NCBI GenBank assembly: GCA_965262915.1
Contig: OZ253564.1
Location: 3,936,001-4,000,000, forward strand
DNA length: 64,000 nucleotides
Source: Candidatus Spongiisociaceae bacterium
GTDB taxonomy: Bacteria; Actinomycetota; Acidimicrobiia; Spongiisociales; Spongiisociaceae
Direction of reading: 5' to 3'
Under the pieces are notes generated by a model that worked only from the letters and a program-made list of their open reading frames with translations, searched no databases and was not told where the DNA came from. This document shows positions 56,445 to 61,530 of this stretch, in pieces. Position 1 is the first letter of the stretch. Every line of letters starts with the position of its first letter. Both the position numbers and the translations under genes were made by a program.

Positions 56445-56628
56445 CAGGCAACTCTTGCGCTAGCCCGTTGCTACGCAATCTGCTCTTCGAGCCGTGCTAA
56501 GTTATGCTAACACGTAACAGAAACCCTGCCAAGTGTGTATTTCGTCACCGGGAGAGGACTCTCGGGCGGCGCTCGATTGGGCGATCTCGACGCACGCAGT
56601 GGTCCGCCACGACAAACCAGGAGGTGAA

Positions 56629-57987
56629 GTGAGAGTAGATTTCCAGCGGGTCGCCGAGCTTACCGACAAGATGGAGAAGGCACTGCGGGCCAAGGTGGAA
56701 CGGTCCGCCGGGTTCTTCGAGCGGGCGTTAAAGGTTCTCCCGGCCGGAGTCCCTTCTTCGTTCCAGGATCAACCTCCACACCCCATCTACATCACAGGCG
56801 GCGAGGGAACCCAGGTTTGGGACCTCGACGGTAACTCGTACACCGACTTCCACAACGGCTTCGGAGTGATGGTGATGGGCCATGCCCATCCCATCATCGT
56901 GGATGCCATACGGAAGGCGGCTGGGAAGGGCACGCACTTCGCCATGCCAACCGAGTCAGCGGTCCGGGTGGCCGAGGAATTGTCCCGGCGGTTCCGGCTG
57001 CCGAAGGTTCGCTTCACGAACTCCGGAACGGAGGCCACGCTCGAGGCCATCCACCTGGCCCGTGCCTTCACCGGTCGAGACACCATCGTCAAGTCGGAGG
57101 GGAGTTACCACGGCCATCACGATTCGGTCATGGTGTCGGTGCACCCCGACCCTGCCCAGATCGGGCCACGGGAGGCGCCCGTTTCCGTTCCCTTCACAGC
57201 GGGTATCCCTCAGGCCTTGGTCGACCTTACTTTGTTGGTCCCCTTCAACGATCCCGACGCTCTGGCGGAGCTGCTTTCCTCCCGCGACGACGTAGCCGGA
57301 GTAATCGTCGAGCCGATCATGCTCAACATCGGAGTGATCACGCCGAATGAGGGCTATCTGGAGGCGCTGCGGGAAATCACCGAGCGCCACGGAGTGGTGT
57401 TGATCTTCGACGAGGTCAAGACGGGGGCCACGATCGCTGCGGGCGGTGTCGGAGAACGCTACGGGGTACTGCCTGATTTGGTCTGTCTGGCCAAAGCAAT
57501 CGGAGGTGGCACCCCAATCGGAGCCATCCTCGGGACCGAGGAGATCATGGGACAGATCAGCGACGGCACCGTCAAGCAGCTAGGCACCTTCAATGGAAAC
57601 CCTCTCACAATGGCGGCCGCCGAAGCGACCCTCACGCGGGTATTGGACGACAAGGCCTACCGCCGGCTTGAGGAGGCTGGGAAGCAGATGGTGGAGGGGT
57701 GCCAAGCTATCTGTGACAAATACGATCTGCCCGCCTACGCGGTGGGCGTCTCCGCCAAGGGCTGCGTGATGTTCGCTGAGAAGGCCGTCACCGACTACCG
57801 CTCCTACGCAGACAACTTTCTCGAACCGCTCAACTACCTTGCCTGGCTGTACCACATGAACAACGGGCTGTTGATGACCCCAGGAGCGGACGAGCAGTGG
57901 ACGCTCTCCATCGCTCACACCGATGAGGAGTTAGACCGCTACGTAAGCGTCTTCGAAGAGTTCGCTCGGGACGTCACTCTCGGATAA
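56629..57987 (+). CDS. Class III aminotransferase, glutamate-1-semialdehyde aminomutase-like
   Basis: NSGTEAT, YHGHHD, FDEVKTG, AKAIGGG and GTFNGNP motifs; GTG with GGAGG RBS. Confidence 0.88.
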   Translation: MRVDFQRVAELTDKMEKALRAKVERSAGFFERALKVLPAGVPSSFQDQPPHPIYITGGEGTQVWDLDGNSYTDFHNGFGVMVMGHAHPIIVDAIRKAAGKGTHFAMPTESAVRVAEELSRRFRLPKVRFTNSGTEATLEAIHLARAFTGRDTIVKSEGSYHGHHDSVMVSVHPDPAQIGPREAPVSVPFTAGIPQALVDLTLLVPFNDPDALAELLSSRDDVAGVIVEPIMLNIGVITPNEGYLEALREITERHGVVLIFDEVKTGATIAAGGVGERYGVLPDLVCLAKAIGGGTPIGAILGTEEIMGQISDGTVKQLGTFNGNPLTMAAAEATLTRVLDDKAYRRLEEAGKQMVEGCQAICDKYDLPAYAVGVSAKGCVMFAEKAVTDYRSYADNFLEPLNYLAWLYHMNNGLLMTPGADEQWTLSIAHTDEELDRYVSVFEEFARDVTLG

Positions 57988-58111
57988 GAGGCTCTTCGGA
58001 AATGAGTGGGGAGTCGGGGATCTGCCAGGGGGAGTGGTAATCCACCAGAAGTGAGGGGGGGTCCTCCATAATCGGGTGCTGGAAAACGACATCCGAGGCA
58101 GGAGGACCCCT

Positions 58112-59411
58112 GTGGAAGCTGATCCCTGCGCGCATGTGCGAGTTGTTGGTAGGCCTGGGCGACGTTGATCTGGTGGGGATCAACGACTCGGGCGAGGGTG
58201 CACCTCTTGAGGTGGTGATCGGGTCCCGCAAGGCCCGCCCGTTGTGTGTGGCGTGTGGCGGCCCGGTGTGGTCCAAGGGTGAGCGGACGGTTGTGTTGGT
58301 GGATTTACCGGCGTTCGGTCGGCCTGTGCGGCTGCGGTGGCGGAAACGCCGTTGGACGTGCCCGAACCCCGACTGTGAGATCAGATCGTTCATCGAACAA
58401 GACCCCACGATTGGTCCCCAACGGGCGTTGTTGACATCCCGAGCGGCGCGGTGGGTGACCATCCAGGTCGGTCGGCGGGGCCGTCCGATCCAAGAGGTCG
58501 CCGCAGAGTTGGGTTGTGATTGGCATACGGTGAACAAAGAGGTTGGCCGCTGGGGCGAAGCGCTGCTGGAAGCCGACACCGATCGGGTCGGGACCGTCGA
58601 AGCTGTGGGAGTGGACGAGACGTTGTTCTGGCGTCGGGGCCGTTGGCGTACCAAAGTCTGGTGCACCTCTGTCGTCGACGTTGGCGGCCACCAGCTGATC
58701 GACATAGTCCCTGGTAGAACAGCAGAAAGCGCCGCAGCCTGGTTCCGGGCGCAGCCCACCGAATGGTGTGAGGCTATCCGCTGGGCGGTGTTGGACATGT
58801 CCGGTTCGTATCGGAAGGCGTATGACAGGGTGTTACCGCACGCTCTGCAGGTAGCGGACCCGTTCCACGTCATACGCCTCGCCAACCAGCGTCTCGACGA
58901 GGTACGACGCCGCACCCAGAACGAAACCCTCGGGCATCGAGGCCGCAAGGATGACCCGCTGTATCGGATACGGCGGCTCCTAACCGCTGCGCATGAGAGG
59001 ATCAGCGACCGGGGTCAAACACGGCTGCGTGGCCTCCTCGACGCTGGTGACCCCCACGGCGAAGTGCGCACAGCCTGGCACGCGAAAGAGACGGTACGAG
59101 GCATCTACGGGATCGAAAGTCCGGTCCTTGCTCTCCGATACACCCTCGGGCTCGCAGACGACCTCCAAGACGAATCCTGCCCACCCGAGATCAACAAGCT
59201 CGGACGTACCATCGCCCGCTGGACCCCCAGATCACCAACTGGCACATCTCGAAGGTAACCAACAGATGCCACCGAAGCCCTCAACAACCTAATCAAACGC
59301 ATCAAACGAGCAGCGTTCGGGTTACCCAACTTCGCGAACTACCGAATCCGCGCCCTTCTCTACGCCGGGAAACCCAACTGGGACCTACTCGCCACCGTCA
59401 CTCCCCACTGA
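58112..59411 (+). pseudogene. ISL3 transposase (frameshifted)
   Basis: Zinc ribbon, GVDE, LDM, DPFHV and TEALNNLIKRIKRAAFG motifs; single-base shifts near 58125, 59227 and 59267. Confidence 0.88.
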
Positions 59412-59430
59412 AATCCACTCATACTTAGAA

Positions 59431-59610
59431 GGTTCCTGGGCTAGGGCGGGTCTGACCCAACTGAAATCTGGCCTTGTGCCTTTTCATCGATCTGTCGGCC
59501 CGTTCCCGGCCTAGGGCGTAACCCCCTGACCCGGGGCGGATGTGACCTAATAGGAGCCTTCAACTTCTCCACCGTGAGTGGCCTGTCCAACCGCACACGG
59601 GTCCGGGATC
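59431..59610 (+). ncRNA. Predicted IS110 bridge RNA (target-binding and donor-binding loops)
   Basis: Stem 59444-59456/59494-59505 encloses ACTGAAATC and TCATCGAT, which match the target. Stem 59528-59533/59598-59603 encloses ATAGGAGC and TGAGTGG, which match the donor. Ends are approximate. Confidence 0.8.
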
Positions 59611-59645
59611 ATAAGTGAGTCTATCCCCTAGAGGAGAAGAGCATC

Positions 59646-60875
59646 ATGGGAGAAGCAGACCAGATTATCTACGGTGGGGTTGACACCCATCGGGACGTCC
59701 ACGTAGCAGCGGTGGTGGATGGCGTCGGGCGGGTACTGGGATCGGAGTCTTTCGCGGTGGAGGAATCCGGTTATCGGCGAATGGTCACCTGGTTCGAGTC
59801 GCGGGGACAGTTGGTTCGGGTTGGGGTGGAAGGAACGGGTAGTTACGGCGCCGGCCTGGCCCGTTACCTGACCGAGATGAACATCGAGGTGGTGGAGGTC
59901 AACCGCCCCAACCGCCAACTACGCCGCCAGAAGGGCGGCAAGACCGACAGCGTCGACGCCGAGGCGGCAGCTCGGGCAGCTGCCTCGGGCGAAGCAACCG
60001 CGGTTCCCAAGTCCGGTGTGGGCCCGGTCGAGTGCATACGGATGCTGTGGGTGGTGCGCCGCTCCGCGGTCAAGGCCCGCACCCAGGCCGCTAACCAGAT
60101 ACATGCGCTGGTCGTAACAGCTCCCGAGCCGCTAAAACACCAGCTAAAGGGCATGAATCTCAAAGCACGGGTCAAAACCTGTGCCCGGTTCCGACCCGGC
60201 ACAGACCACACCACCACCGCGTATGCGAAGCGTGCCCTACAGCATTTGGCCCGCCGGTATCAGGCCCTCGACGTAGAGATCGCCCAACTCGAAGCCGAGA
60301 TCCGGCGTCTCTGCGCCCAGGCCAACCCGGCCCTGCTGGCCACAGAAGGTGTCGGTCCTGACACAGCCGCCGCGTTGTTGGTCGCCGCCGGCGACAACCC
60401 CAAGCGAATGAAATCGGAACGGTCTTTCGCGGCGCTGTGCGGCGCCAGCCCCGTCCAGGCGTCATCAGGACGAACCCTTCGGCATCGTCTCAACCGGGGC
60501 GGCAACCGCCAAGCCAACAACGCGCTATGGCGGATCGCTACCACCCGGATGCGCACCGACGCCGCCACCAAAGCCTACGTGGCACGACGCAAGGCCGAGG
60601 GCAAGAAGAAAAAGGAGATCATCCGCTGCCTCAAGCGGCACATCGCCCGAGAAATCTACCGGCTCCTCACCAACCCGCACCCAACCCCGAACTGCGCCCG
60701 CCTACGCACCCGACGCCAACAACGCGGCATCACCCTCACCCAGACCGCCCAAGCCGTCGGAACCCACCCCAATCGCATCTCAGCACTCGAACACGGCCGA
60801 GACCACAACCACCACCTCGCCACCCGATACCAGAACTGGCTGCACACCCACCAAACCGCCCCATCATCGATTTGA
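59646..60875 (+). CDS. IS110 family recombinase/transposase with a C-terminal XRE-type HTH
   Basis: GVDTH, GVEGTG, KTDSVDA (DEDD), ASSG catalytic Ser and HRLNRGGNR; extra RLRTRRQQRGITLTQTAQAVG...ISALEHG. Confidence 0.93.
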   Translation: MGEADQIIYGGVDTHRDVHVAAVVDGVGRVLGSESFAVEESGYRRMVTWFESRGQLVRVGVEGTGSYGAGLARYLTEMNIEVVEVNRPNRQLRRQKGGKTDSVDAEAAARAAASGEATAVPKSGVGPVECIRMLWVVRRSAVKARTQAANQIHALVVTAPEPLKHQLKGMNLKARVKTCARFRPGTDHTTTAYAKRALQHLARRYQALDVEIAQLEAEIRRLCAQANPALLATEGVGPDTAAALLVAAGDNPKRMKSERSFAALCGASPVQASSGRTLRHRLNRGGNRQANNALWRIATTRMRTDAATKAYVARRKAEGKKKKEIIRCLKRHIAREIYRLLTNPHPTPNCARLRTRRQQRGITLTQTAQAVGTHPNRISALEHGRDHNHHLATRYQNWLHTHQTAPSSI

Positions 60876-61109
60876 CAACCATAGGAGCATCGATGAGCCG
60901 GATAAGAGCGGCGGAAGGCTGCAGTCCGTTCAGTTTGCGGGTTCGGTGCGGGAGAAATTGGGAGCGCAGCGTGGTGTCCTCCGGCACACCCCTGGCGAGA
61001 AGGTTACGAACGGCAGGTGCATCTCCGAGGCGCTCGGTTGCAACACAATCTCGTTCGCCACGCGCGATGGAGGCCGTGTCTGGCCACAAACCGGATACCT
61101 CGCAGAAGC

Positions 61110-61138
61110 CGAAAACCCTTGCACTGCAAGGGTTTTCG
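61110..61138. terminator. Perfect inverted repeat downstream of the tRNA
   Basis: CGAAAACCCTTGCA-C-TGCAAGGGTTTTCG. Confidence 0.7.
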
Positions 61139-61142
61139 TTCG

Positions 61143-61217
<75 letters not shown>

Positions 61218-61530
61218 TCGATTGGATTCATGATTGTAGCGCATTTCTCCGGGTTTGGCTACGGCACCGGGCCCCCGGTTGTCGGCTACAGACCGGCCGC
61301 GAAGTTGAGTGCCTCGTCGAAGGTGGCGTCCTGAAGTAACAGCCGGCGTATCTTGATCAACGGCCGATCATGTCGATGGATAGAGCGACAGCATCCTCGG
61401 CGACAGCAATCAACCGCGCATGCCTGCTGCCTCGGCGTGAGCCTCCCGTCGGCGCGCCTGGAGGCCGATCGTAGAGCCGCAACACAACTGCTACGCTATC
61501 CGCACATCCGTACGTAAAAGGACCATACGC

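Follow-up and report, generated by a model that had tools for sequence, protein, structure and literature searches.

The closest described counterpart of the locus analysed here is IS621 of E. coli (PMC11208160, PMC11208158). The IS621 recombinase combines a DEDD RuvC-like domain with a Tnp domain that carries a catalytic Ser, and the long left end of the element specifies an RNA in which a target loop and a donor loop are present. Both loops have a 5′ guide that equals the left top strand and a 3′ guide that is complementary to the right top strand, and the bases 3′ of the right guides, the handshake positions, fit the strand that comes in after exchange. A −35 motif is located in the right end and a −10 motif in the left end. 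For CazIS110-1 and IS621, two preprints (bioRxiv 10.1101/2025.10.25.684509 and 10.64898/2026.08.31.748434) describe copy-out excision and mainly top-strand insertion. A precedent for targeting the terminal repeat of a transposon is provided by IS4321/IS5075, which have a DEDD transposase and insert into the terminal inverted repeat of a different transposable element, always at one position and in one orientation.

Counterparts to all of these IS621 features are seen or predicted in the window, i.e., the whole stretch of 64,000 nucleotides that was analysed. It very probably holds an IS110-group element of 1474 bp with a DEDD/Ser recombinase and a left-end, two-loop bridge RNA that targets the right repeat of an ISL3 element (Table 1). 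As such, it is a natural example of the known bridge RNA mechanism, and the mechanism is not new. Membership of the IS110 family, proposed earlier in a sequence-only reading of this DNA, is borne out by the recombinase: the DEDD RuvC-like N-terminal domain matches Pfam PF01548 (DEDD_Tnp_IS110; E 1.2e-23, residues 11–156), the C-terminal Tnp domain matches PF02371 (Transposase_20; E 1.7e-19, residues 230–312), and the NCBIfam model NF033542, “IS110 family RNA-guided transposase”, scores 210.3 bits against a cut-off of 140. The catalytic residues of IS621 are named in PMC11208158. In an alignment with the IS621 chain 8wt6, the residues Asp13, Glu62, Asp101, Asp104, and Ser274 are each matched by the same amino acid, and Ser274-Gly275 is aligned with SG of the chain; equating these residues with the catalytic ones of IS621 (Asp11, Glu60, Asp102, and Asp105 for the first four) presupposes a shift of 2 in the numbering of the chain. 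The two proteins are distant (E 9.5e-12), and the solved IS621 chain has 328 residues compared with 409 here, where an HTH-like tail is present.

Table 1. Coordinates of the ISL3 host, the IS110-group element, and its predicted bridge RNA, in positions of the window.
Feature	Position	Strand	Remarks
ISL3 target duplication, left copy, GGATAAGA	57982–57989	+	8 bp; holds TAA stop of upstream ORF 56533–57987
ISL3 element up to insertion point	57990–59416	+	Left inverted repeat from 57990 (GGCTCTTCGGAAATGAGTGGGG)
ISL3 transposase ORF, shortened	58134–59258	+	405-aa stop-to-stop frame; 445 aa in intact copies
Inner part of ISL3 right repeat, CCCCACTGAAATCC	59403–59416	+	
Left copy of single common C	59416	+	Second core base; with 59415, target-type core CC
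IS110-family element proper, ACTCAT...GGAGCAT	59417–60890	+	1474 bp; flanking C on either side
−10-like hexamer CATACT	59420–59425	+	CATAAT in most sister copies; would act only after end joining
Bridge RNA region, predicted	59429–59631	+	Covariance model R1 match, 161 bits
Target-binding loop and closing stem	59443–59507	+	59443–59456 pairs with 59494–59507
Left target guide, ACTGAAATC	59460–59468	+	Plus U 59469
Target-loop inner hairpin GGC/GCC	59470–59480	+	GGC 59470–72, GCC 59478–80
Right target guide, TCATC	59484–59488	+	59484–59491 = TCATCGAT
GA	59489–59490	+	Complementary to donor core TC
U	59491	+	Complementary to donor position 7
Donor-binding loop	59528–59603	+	Three-part closing stem GACCCG/CGGGTC, GCGG/CCGC, GAC/GTC
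Left donor guide, ATAGGAGCCTT	59550–59560	+	59550–59557 = ATAGGAGC
Right donor guide, TGAGT	59575–59579	+	Plus GG 59580–59581, complementary to target-type core CC
IS110-family recombinase, 409 aa	59646–60875	+	Pfam, NCBIfam, IS621-chain alignment; C-terminal HTH match 351–386
−35-like hexamer TTGACA	60872–60877	+	In right end; overlaps stop codon
Right end ATAGGAGCAT and right copy of common C	60881–60891	+	Donor-type core TC at 60890–60891
Tip of ISL3 right inverted repeat, GATGAGCC	60892–60899	+	Cut off from the rest by the IS110 element
ISL3 target duplication, right copy, GGATAAGA	60900–60907	+	

The architecture of the element is that of the IS110 group, with a long non-coding left end (229 nt, 59417–59645), a short right end (15 nt, 60876–60890), and no long terminal inverted repeats; judged by eye, inverted repeats are absent from the ends ACTCATAC and ATAGGAGCAT. 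There is no multi-base target duplication at the element, and a single C is the only base in common. Nine copies have DNA identities of at least 99%, eight of them with a full open frame for an identical protein, and the same element is present at the same site in another genome (L061). The element is likely active, the recombination itself being a prediction from sequence. The host belongs to the ISL3 family, as seen from its transposase (PF01610, DDE_Tnp_ISL3, E 2.4e-36; NF033550, 228 bits for a cut-off of 180), and has imperfect terminal inverted repeats of 22 bp. Target duplications of 8 bp, which are typical of ISL3, flank this and other copies, and the one in the window is intact, as had been read. 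The right repeat of ISL3 is interrupted 9 bp from its tip, directly after the stop codon of the ISL3 transposase, and the split repeat would cripple this ISL3 copy.

In the target loop, the RNA segments ACUGAAAUC on the 5′ side and UCAUC-GA on the 3′ side match the right inverted repeat of ISL3 (...ACTGAAATC-C-GATGA) at 9 + 5 positions, with the core G in addition. In the donor loop, the segments AUAGGAGCCUU and UGAGU-GG match the element's own ends (...ATAGGAGCA-TC and ACTCA...), on the left with 8 of 11 Watson–Crick pairs plus U·A and U·G, and on the right with 7; the left donor guide reaches the core only with a mismatch at donor position 7 and a U·G pair. Direct reading finds all strings quoted in the sequence-only reading where it had placed them, including TGAGTGG at 59575–59581. 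Among 44 distinct sequences, 89.4% of the cells in the stems are paired, and 19 of 31 pairs have changed on both sides, as counted in an alignment fitted to the model structure and with the donor-loop stems set by eye from anchored comparisons. None of 500 shuffles equals the observed value, and slid controls pair at 36–50%. The donor-loop stems were set by hand because RNAalifold, run with 9 and 35 sequences, recovers the target loop alone of the two loops. For the nine sequences, RNAalifold pairs the right donor guide with the outermost bases of the left end; this was rejected, as those bases are probably not transcribed. Folding with homologs and a covariance model, as had been suggested, yields covarying stems. 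The single-sequence fold of the left end is no better than shuffles (z −1.08) and pairs the donor-loop guide elsewhere in the RNA. An Rfam scan of 57900–61300 at E up to 1 detected no bridge RNA, the only matches being a tRNA-Met and a sub-threshold radC; Rfam 15 itself may hold none.

The position of the core deserves closer consideration. The junctions read as first quoted, ACTGAAATCCACTC at 59407–59420 and AGGAGCATCGATGA at 60883–60896, and the sequence-only reading took TC to be a core common to donor and target, with the 14-mer ACTGAAA-TC-GATGA as target and ...GGAGCA-TC-CACTC as circle, i.e., a junction ...GCATC|CACTCATA. Guides read in the IS621 manner (7+2, 2+5) spell exactly this 14-mer, and one ISL3 copy (G000:306078–307506) has it as its right end. 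Nevertheless, this model is very improbable, since 22 of 23 empty ISL3 right ends have an extra C (...AAATC-C-GA[T/A]GAGCC), and exact sites in the genome are found 12 times as ACTGAAATCCGATGA compared with once as ACTGAAATCGATGA. It further predicts ...GCATC-CGATGA to the right of insertions at the common site, which is observed in none of 15 complete ISL3 insertions. Removal of the element by the TC parse therefore rebuilds a right repeat, ACTGAAATCGATGA, known from a single one of the 23 empty copies, whereas removal that leaves the extra C rebuilds the common form; the caveat of a 1-nt core that accompanied the earlier reading agrees with these same empty ends. Because 22 of 23 empty ends read AAATC-C-GATGA, we assign the target core as CC (AC in sister families) and the donor core as TC, with the second base alone in common. 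A core dinucleotide common to donor and target, a feature of IS621-type bridge RNAs, is thus absent. The first core base of IS621 is likewise less conserved and can vary (PMC11208158). The ISL3 copy at 306078 that lacks one C was considered as an excision footprint and set aside; exchange after the common C restores a two-C site, so this copy needs another explanation.

With only the second core base, C, in common, and by analogy with IS621, the top strands would be cut after the core C and exchanged, and the bases 3′ of the right guides (GA-U for the target, GG for the donor) would then pair with the incoming strand. Insertion would be favoured, because there would be 5 Watson–Crick pairs after exchange compared with 2 before. 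In all 19 complete elements open to this check, the left junction retains the first core base of the target and the right junction the donor T. In fixed insertions, this is what a product of top-strand exchange would look like; the place where the bottom strand is cut, or a bias in repair, may also account for it.

Joining of the ends with one C gives a predicted circle junction GGAGCATC-ACTCAT, i.e., ...ATAGGAGCATC|ACTCATA..., which would create a TTGACA-17-CATACT promoter for both the RNA and the recombinase, again by analogy with IS621. When the ends are joined in silico in this way, TTG[AC][CA][AC]-17 nt-CATA[ACG]T is found in 25 of 25 complete elements. The motif of the junction promoter proposed earlier therefore stands, but with a spacing of 17 and not the 18 that goes with a TC core. 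In four public runs, no circle junction (~60890 to ~59417) is listed among the contigs; these data consist of contigs, and uncovered parts in the RNA runs carry no evidential weight. A joint that goes back from 60892 to 59301 (one contig, depth 3.3) looks like a nested ISL3, as at G000:1144240–1145771, and not like a circle. A 262-nt contig from an RNA library covers 59358–59560 with 9 differences; it represents the copy of a relative and does not demonstrate transcription. From the same RNA-library run, a contig of 97 nt presents an empty ISL3 end (...AAATCC|GAAGAGCC).

The guides of the window are found in 17 elements, nine ~99% and eight ~81% identical to the window copy, and 16 of these are inserted in the right inverted repeat of an ISL3 copy, always at the same position. 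This amounts to 16 of 39 ISL3 right ends, at a single position and in a single orientation, in agreement with the earlier view that IS110 parasitises ISL3 ends. The remaining element sits at a non-matching site (6 of 14 positions), so that the proposed search for other copies supports the targeting in all cases except this one. For this misplaced B-type copy, none of the guide sets of the genome gives a perfect match, the best being family H with 12 of 14 positions in a shifted register. Could a single ancient IS110 insertion instead have been spread as a composite by ISL3, without repeated targeting? ISL3 ends do flank every composite, and two pairs of occupied hosts are mutual nearest relatives (97.0% and 94.2%). 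However, IS110 copies that are 99% identical reside in ISL3 hosts with identities down to 86%; the 13 full-length occupied hosts, with mutual identities of 86.2–98.8%, are dispersed over the ISL3 tree, where occupied and empty copies are interspersed, and one of these hosts has an identity of 100% with empty copies. In addition, two IS110 subfamilies (81% identical) share the position, and sister families with other loops occupy other sites that match those loops. We therefore regard co-transposition as very improbable. Two further arrangements were observed in the genome: an ISL3 subfamily with a changed repeat is occupied by IS110 in 0 of 6 cases, and in one reverse case an ISL3 element splits an IS110 element.

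Repeated, RNA-guided targeting of the ISL3 right repeat also accords with the sister families. On one scaffold, seven guide pairs are present in this genome and two more in relatives, giving nine sets that each fit their own flanks; the six sets other than that of the window are found at six other sites matching their own loops. Of 19 distinct sites, 18 match their own guides at 11–14 of 14 positions, compared with a mean of 5.9 of 14 for 171 non-cognate combinations, five of which reach 11 or more. The match between guides and sites is far beyond chance and, together with the covariation of the stems, upholds the two-loop bridge RNA proposed for the long left end. Exact empty sites were found for five families. 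The donor module is common to all families, and a change in the left donor guide is accompanied by one in the right end (A to G in families F and G). As for the register, it counts against the proposed reading that the left guide of the window family is shifted by one base with respect to the cut site when compared with four sister families; an extra base separates the left- and right-guide pairings in the targets of three guide families and of none of four others. Recognition of the site by the protein alone, with the left-end complementarity incidental or used for end recognition only, has in its favour an extra C-terminal helix-turn-helix match in the recombinase and a bridge RNA known here from sequence alone, but is most unlikely given that recombinases 68–81% identical to that of the window have different sites, that sites in every case track two short variable segments within a conserved scaffold, that the stems are kept by compensatory changes, and that RNA guiding has been demonstrated experimentally for the IS110 family (PMC11208160, PMC11208158).

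Compared with IS621, the differences concern mainly the core and the target. In the core, NC, the second base is an invariant C, as opposed to CT with an invariant T in IS621; the first core base is not the same in donor and target, sister families use two left-guide registers, and the target is an ISL3 end and not a REP sequence. IS4321/IS5075 belong to the IS1111 group, whose inverted repeats are subterminal and whose guide RNA is located in the right end, unlike the left-end RNA of the present IS110-group element, and their hosts are Tn3-family transposons of Proteobacteria, as opposed to ISL3 in an Acidimicrobiia-like genome. The 19 junctions described above match the top-strand product of the single-strand pathways of CazIS110-1 and IS621, but that work is experimental, whereas ours concerns sequences of fixed insertions. 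In a literature search, targeting of ISL3 ends was undescribed; related elements, with their targets, may already be included in the covariation tables of PMC11208160 and PMC11208158.

A single closed genome is sufficient to read the guides, the target, the empty sites, and a large number of independent insertions, which makes this a clean natural validation of the bridge-RNA rules beyond Proteobacteria. The ISL3 terminal repeat is added as a target class for the IS110 group. For the design of bridge recombinases, it offers natural data on tolerance of a mismatch at the first core base, on guide bases that fit after exchange, and on a one-base shift in the register of the left guide. Only tentatively do we propose that, in four respects taken jointly, bridge recombination has been put to a natural experiment in this closed genome. 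If true, the core mismatch together with the uniform top-strand products would be natural evidence for top-strand-only integration, and the three families with an extra base, set against the four without it, would imply a flexible guide register. Given the common donor module, the RNA of one family could place the element of another, and the misplaced B-type copy would be a case of such cross-family guiding. Finally, IS110 would be a hyperparasite that disables ISL3, from which the ISL3 subfamily with the changed repeat escapes. For the biology of this genome, the finding means that an IS110 family repeatedly splits the ends of ISL3 elements.

The window carries an ISL3 element whose right repeat is broken after ...CCCCACTGAAATCC (ending at 59416) and continues as GATGAGCC (60892-60899), the interruption being a 1.47-kb element with a single ORF. 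All strings quoted in the sequence-only reading were found in place by direct reading of the window, and its assignment of the insertion to IS110 is borne out: the ORF has Pfam matches to DEDD_Tnp_IS110 and Transposase_20, and an NCBIfam match to 'IS110 family RNA-guided transposase' (210 bits; cut-off 140). The recombinase aligns with the IS621 transposase structure 8wt6 (E 9.5e-12), with D13, E62, D101, D104, and S274 each matched by the identical residue. Given an inferred 2-residue offset in chain numbering, these would be the catalytic residues of the IS621 transposase named in PMC11208158. An HTH match at the C-terminus (residues 351-386, window 60696-60803; HTH_31, HTH_3) lies outside the IS621-aligned part. 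The non-coding ends measure 229 nt on the left and 15 nt on the right, the same long left and short right layout that is described for the IS110 group in PMC11208160. The host element codes for an ISL3 transposase (Pfam and NCBIfam matches), shortened in the window to a 405-aa frame compared with 445 aa in intact copies; the 445-aa frame occurs in 11 identical copies. In this region, DNA contigs from two public runs differ from the window by +1 at 59223 and -1 at 59267/8. The ISL3 insertion point is the stop codon of an upstream aminotransferase-like ORF, the TAA lying inside the 8-bp duplication.

Features of the window around the insertion, and a related remnant
Feature	Position	Strand	Remarks
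Decayed IS110 left-end remnant, F-like target loop	33887-34070	-	R1 56 bits; flank ...atcactgagatt/CACTCAT
Aminotransferase-like ORF	56533-57987
ISL3 8-bp target duplication GGATAAGA	57982-57989 and 60900-60907	+	direct reading
ISL3 element start	57990		direct reading
ISL3 transposase	58134-59258
IS110 ORF	59646-60875
tRNA-Met (cat)	61142-61217	-	235 bp downstream of ISL3 duplication

The window belongs to one 5.06-Mb contig of the source genome (G000), in which BLAST finds nine IS110 copies at least 99% identical, eight of full length and one with its 3' end cut by an ISL3 insertion, eight further copies of about 81% identity with the same loops (subfamilies A and B, respectively), and more distant families. 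An identical recombinase protein is coded at nine places, with all 409 residues at eight. Among 39 ISL3 right ends, 16 are occupied, 22 are empty (...C-GA[T/A]GAGC), and one is empty and lacks one C, in agreement with the earlier claim that the element parasitises ISL3 ends. Based on the 37 full-length ISL3 copies, shorter fragments being excluded, pairwise identity among the 13 full-length occupied hosts is 86.2-98.8% (median 90.0%); they are interspersed with empty copies in the tree, one being 100% identical to empty copies. Such diverse and scattered hosts show repeated hits rather than the spread of a single composite by copying. A second public genome, L061, which bears the label Acidimicrobiia, has the same element, with identical protein, at the same site.

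An alignment of left ends from 25 complete elements, defined through their common termini, shows that the scaffold is conserved around two short segments that vary, GGGTCTGAC[CT]C[ACG]-N9-T-GGC...GCC-TT[TA]-N5-GATCTGTCG. Seven guide pairs are carried on this scaffold in G000 and two more in relatives, and each agrees with its own flanks. Over 14 positions, and with the 16 ISL3 sites merged into three rows, own guides match at 14 positions in 7 of 19 distinct sites, 13 in 6, 12 in 4, 11 in 1, and 6 in 1, compared with a mean of 5.9 for 171 non-cognate combinations (at least 11 in five). Exact empty sites exist in G000 for five families. In families F and G, the left guide of the donor loop, [A/G]TAGGAGC, covaries with the right end. 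The family C and G targets lie 8 nt apart in one repeat, CGCGAAAACGTGGG-ttgggtgg-GGTGAAATCCTTGG (G000:67882-67917, 543398-543433, and 3670465-3670500), and that of family D is the end of a different repeat with nine empty copies.

Elements with the ACTGAAATC/TCATC loop at unrelated sites had been named as evidence against guiding; 16 of 17 occupy one position, in one orientation, in the ISL3 right repeat, and one does not. This B-type element (G000:3663632-3665110, minus strand) carries ISL3 guides at a non-matching site in another repeat family of at least 10 copies. Its site is nearest to the family H guides (12/14 in shifted register), and it may have been placed in trans by another family's RNA. 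A half-match insertion, as reported in bioRxiv 10.64898/2026.08.31.748434, may also explain it, as may exchange of the left end after insertion. Empty paralogs of this repeat agree with the rule that holds for all families, in which the occupied site reads X + C + ACTCAT...GGAGCAT + C + Y and the empty site X + C + Y, where X and Y are the left and right flanks.

The TC core proposed as shared by donor and target is contradicted by an extra C: AAATC-C-GATGA stands at 22 of the 23 empty ISL3 ends (12 exact 15-mers vs one 14-mer). The sole copy with a right end short of one C (ACTGAAATCGATGAGCC; G000:306078-307506, minus strand) has the exact 14-mer spelled by the guides in the other register. 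Two registers are found. In families C, E, and G the 9-nt left guide abuts the shared C: exact empty sites number 3, 2, and 6 in this form and zero with one base more. Family H, for which no exact empty site was found in G000, is placed with them by its flanks alone. In families A/B and D an extra C is present at 12 and 9 sites, vs 1 and 0 without it, and family F joins them by flanks alone. In the extra-C group, the conserved U that follows the left guide could form a U.G pair with the core.

PMC11208158 places the IS621 top-strand cut after core position 9. Read in this frame, the donor is AGGAGCA-TC/ACTCA and the ISL3 target CTGAAAT-CC/GATGA. In all 19 complete elements with a target core known from empty sites and differing from T (15 ISL3, two family C, one D, and one E), the first core base of the target is on the left junction and the donor T on the right. 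This pattern is, as far as sequence can tell, that of a top-strand product. It agrees with the top-strand or single-strand transfer described in bioRxiv 10.1101/2025.10.25.684509 and 10.64898/2026.08.31.748434, without proving such transfer. In the target loop, the right guide is followed by an invariant GA, which complements the donor core TC, and then by a U complementary to donor position 7. In the donor loop, the right guide is followed by GG or GU; in five of seven G000 families these two bases complement the target core, CC or AC, and in a relative's D family they switch along with the target. By this complementarity, the post-guide bases behave like the IS621 handshake guides, whose pairing takes place after exchange and promotes insertion (PMC11208158 and PMC13626964). 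They would pair with the incoming strand, favouring insertion, an effect that would here reach the first core base.

RNAalifold recovers the closing stem of the target loop and the GGC/GCC hairpin, and the stems that close the donor loop (GAC/GTC, GCGG/CCGC, and an outer helix that varies) were assigned through anchored comparisons. The covariance model built on the target-loop and hand-assigned donor-loop structure (R1; 212 positions, 31 pairs) matches 39 places in G000, including the remnant in the table, which has no ORF of at least 100 aa downstream in the expected orientation. In the order, 22 of 141 sampled genomes are matched, counting G000 and one unpublished genome (G032), which enters this tally alone. 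For 44 distinct matches, 89.4% of cells are paired and 19 of 31 pairs have changed on both sides, figures biased towards the structure since the alignment was fitted to R1; none of 500 shuffles was as good, and slid controls paired at 36-50%. Modelling with homologs thus favours the two-loop bridge RNA of the sequence-only reading. Its junction promoter stands as a motif, TTG[AC][CA][AC]-17 nt-CATA[ACG]T, in 25/25 complete elements joined in silico with one shared C; the junction first drawn would give an 18-nt spacer. Contigs of four public runs contain no circle junction, nor do they prove transcription.

A-type IS110 is also found inside an ISL3 end with an ISL3 copy in its own 3' end (G000:4175386-4178303), so that both IS families hit each other. 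No copy is occupied in the ISL3 subfamily whose right end is ...ACTGAAACG-CGATGAGCC and whose left repeat is changed to match (six G000 copies, e.g., 1601861-1603289 and 3227229-3228657). For this ...AAACG repeat occupancy is 0/6, vs 16/32 for ...AAATC (Fisher p = 0.03; small numbers, related copies); these copies may represent an escape variant or just a separate subfamily. IS4321/IS5075 of the IS1111 group reportedly target the terminal repeat of another transposon. Among the papers that our literature search covered, none deals with an IS110 element targeting ISL3 ends, though supplementary tables may contain such targets. Judged on its sequence-testable features, all present except a fully shared core dinucleotide, the mechanism is IS621-type bridge recombination. 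With RNA, circle, and activity predicted, the natural evidence is good for a new element that uses a known mechanism.
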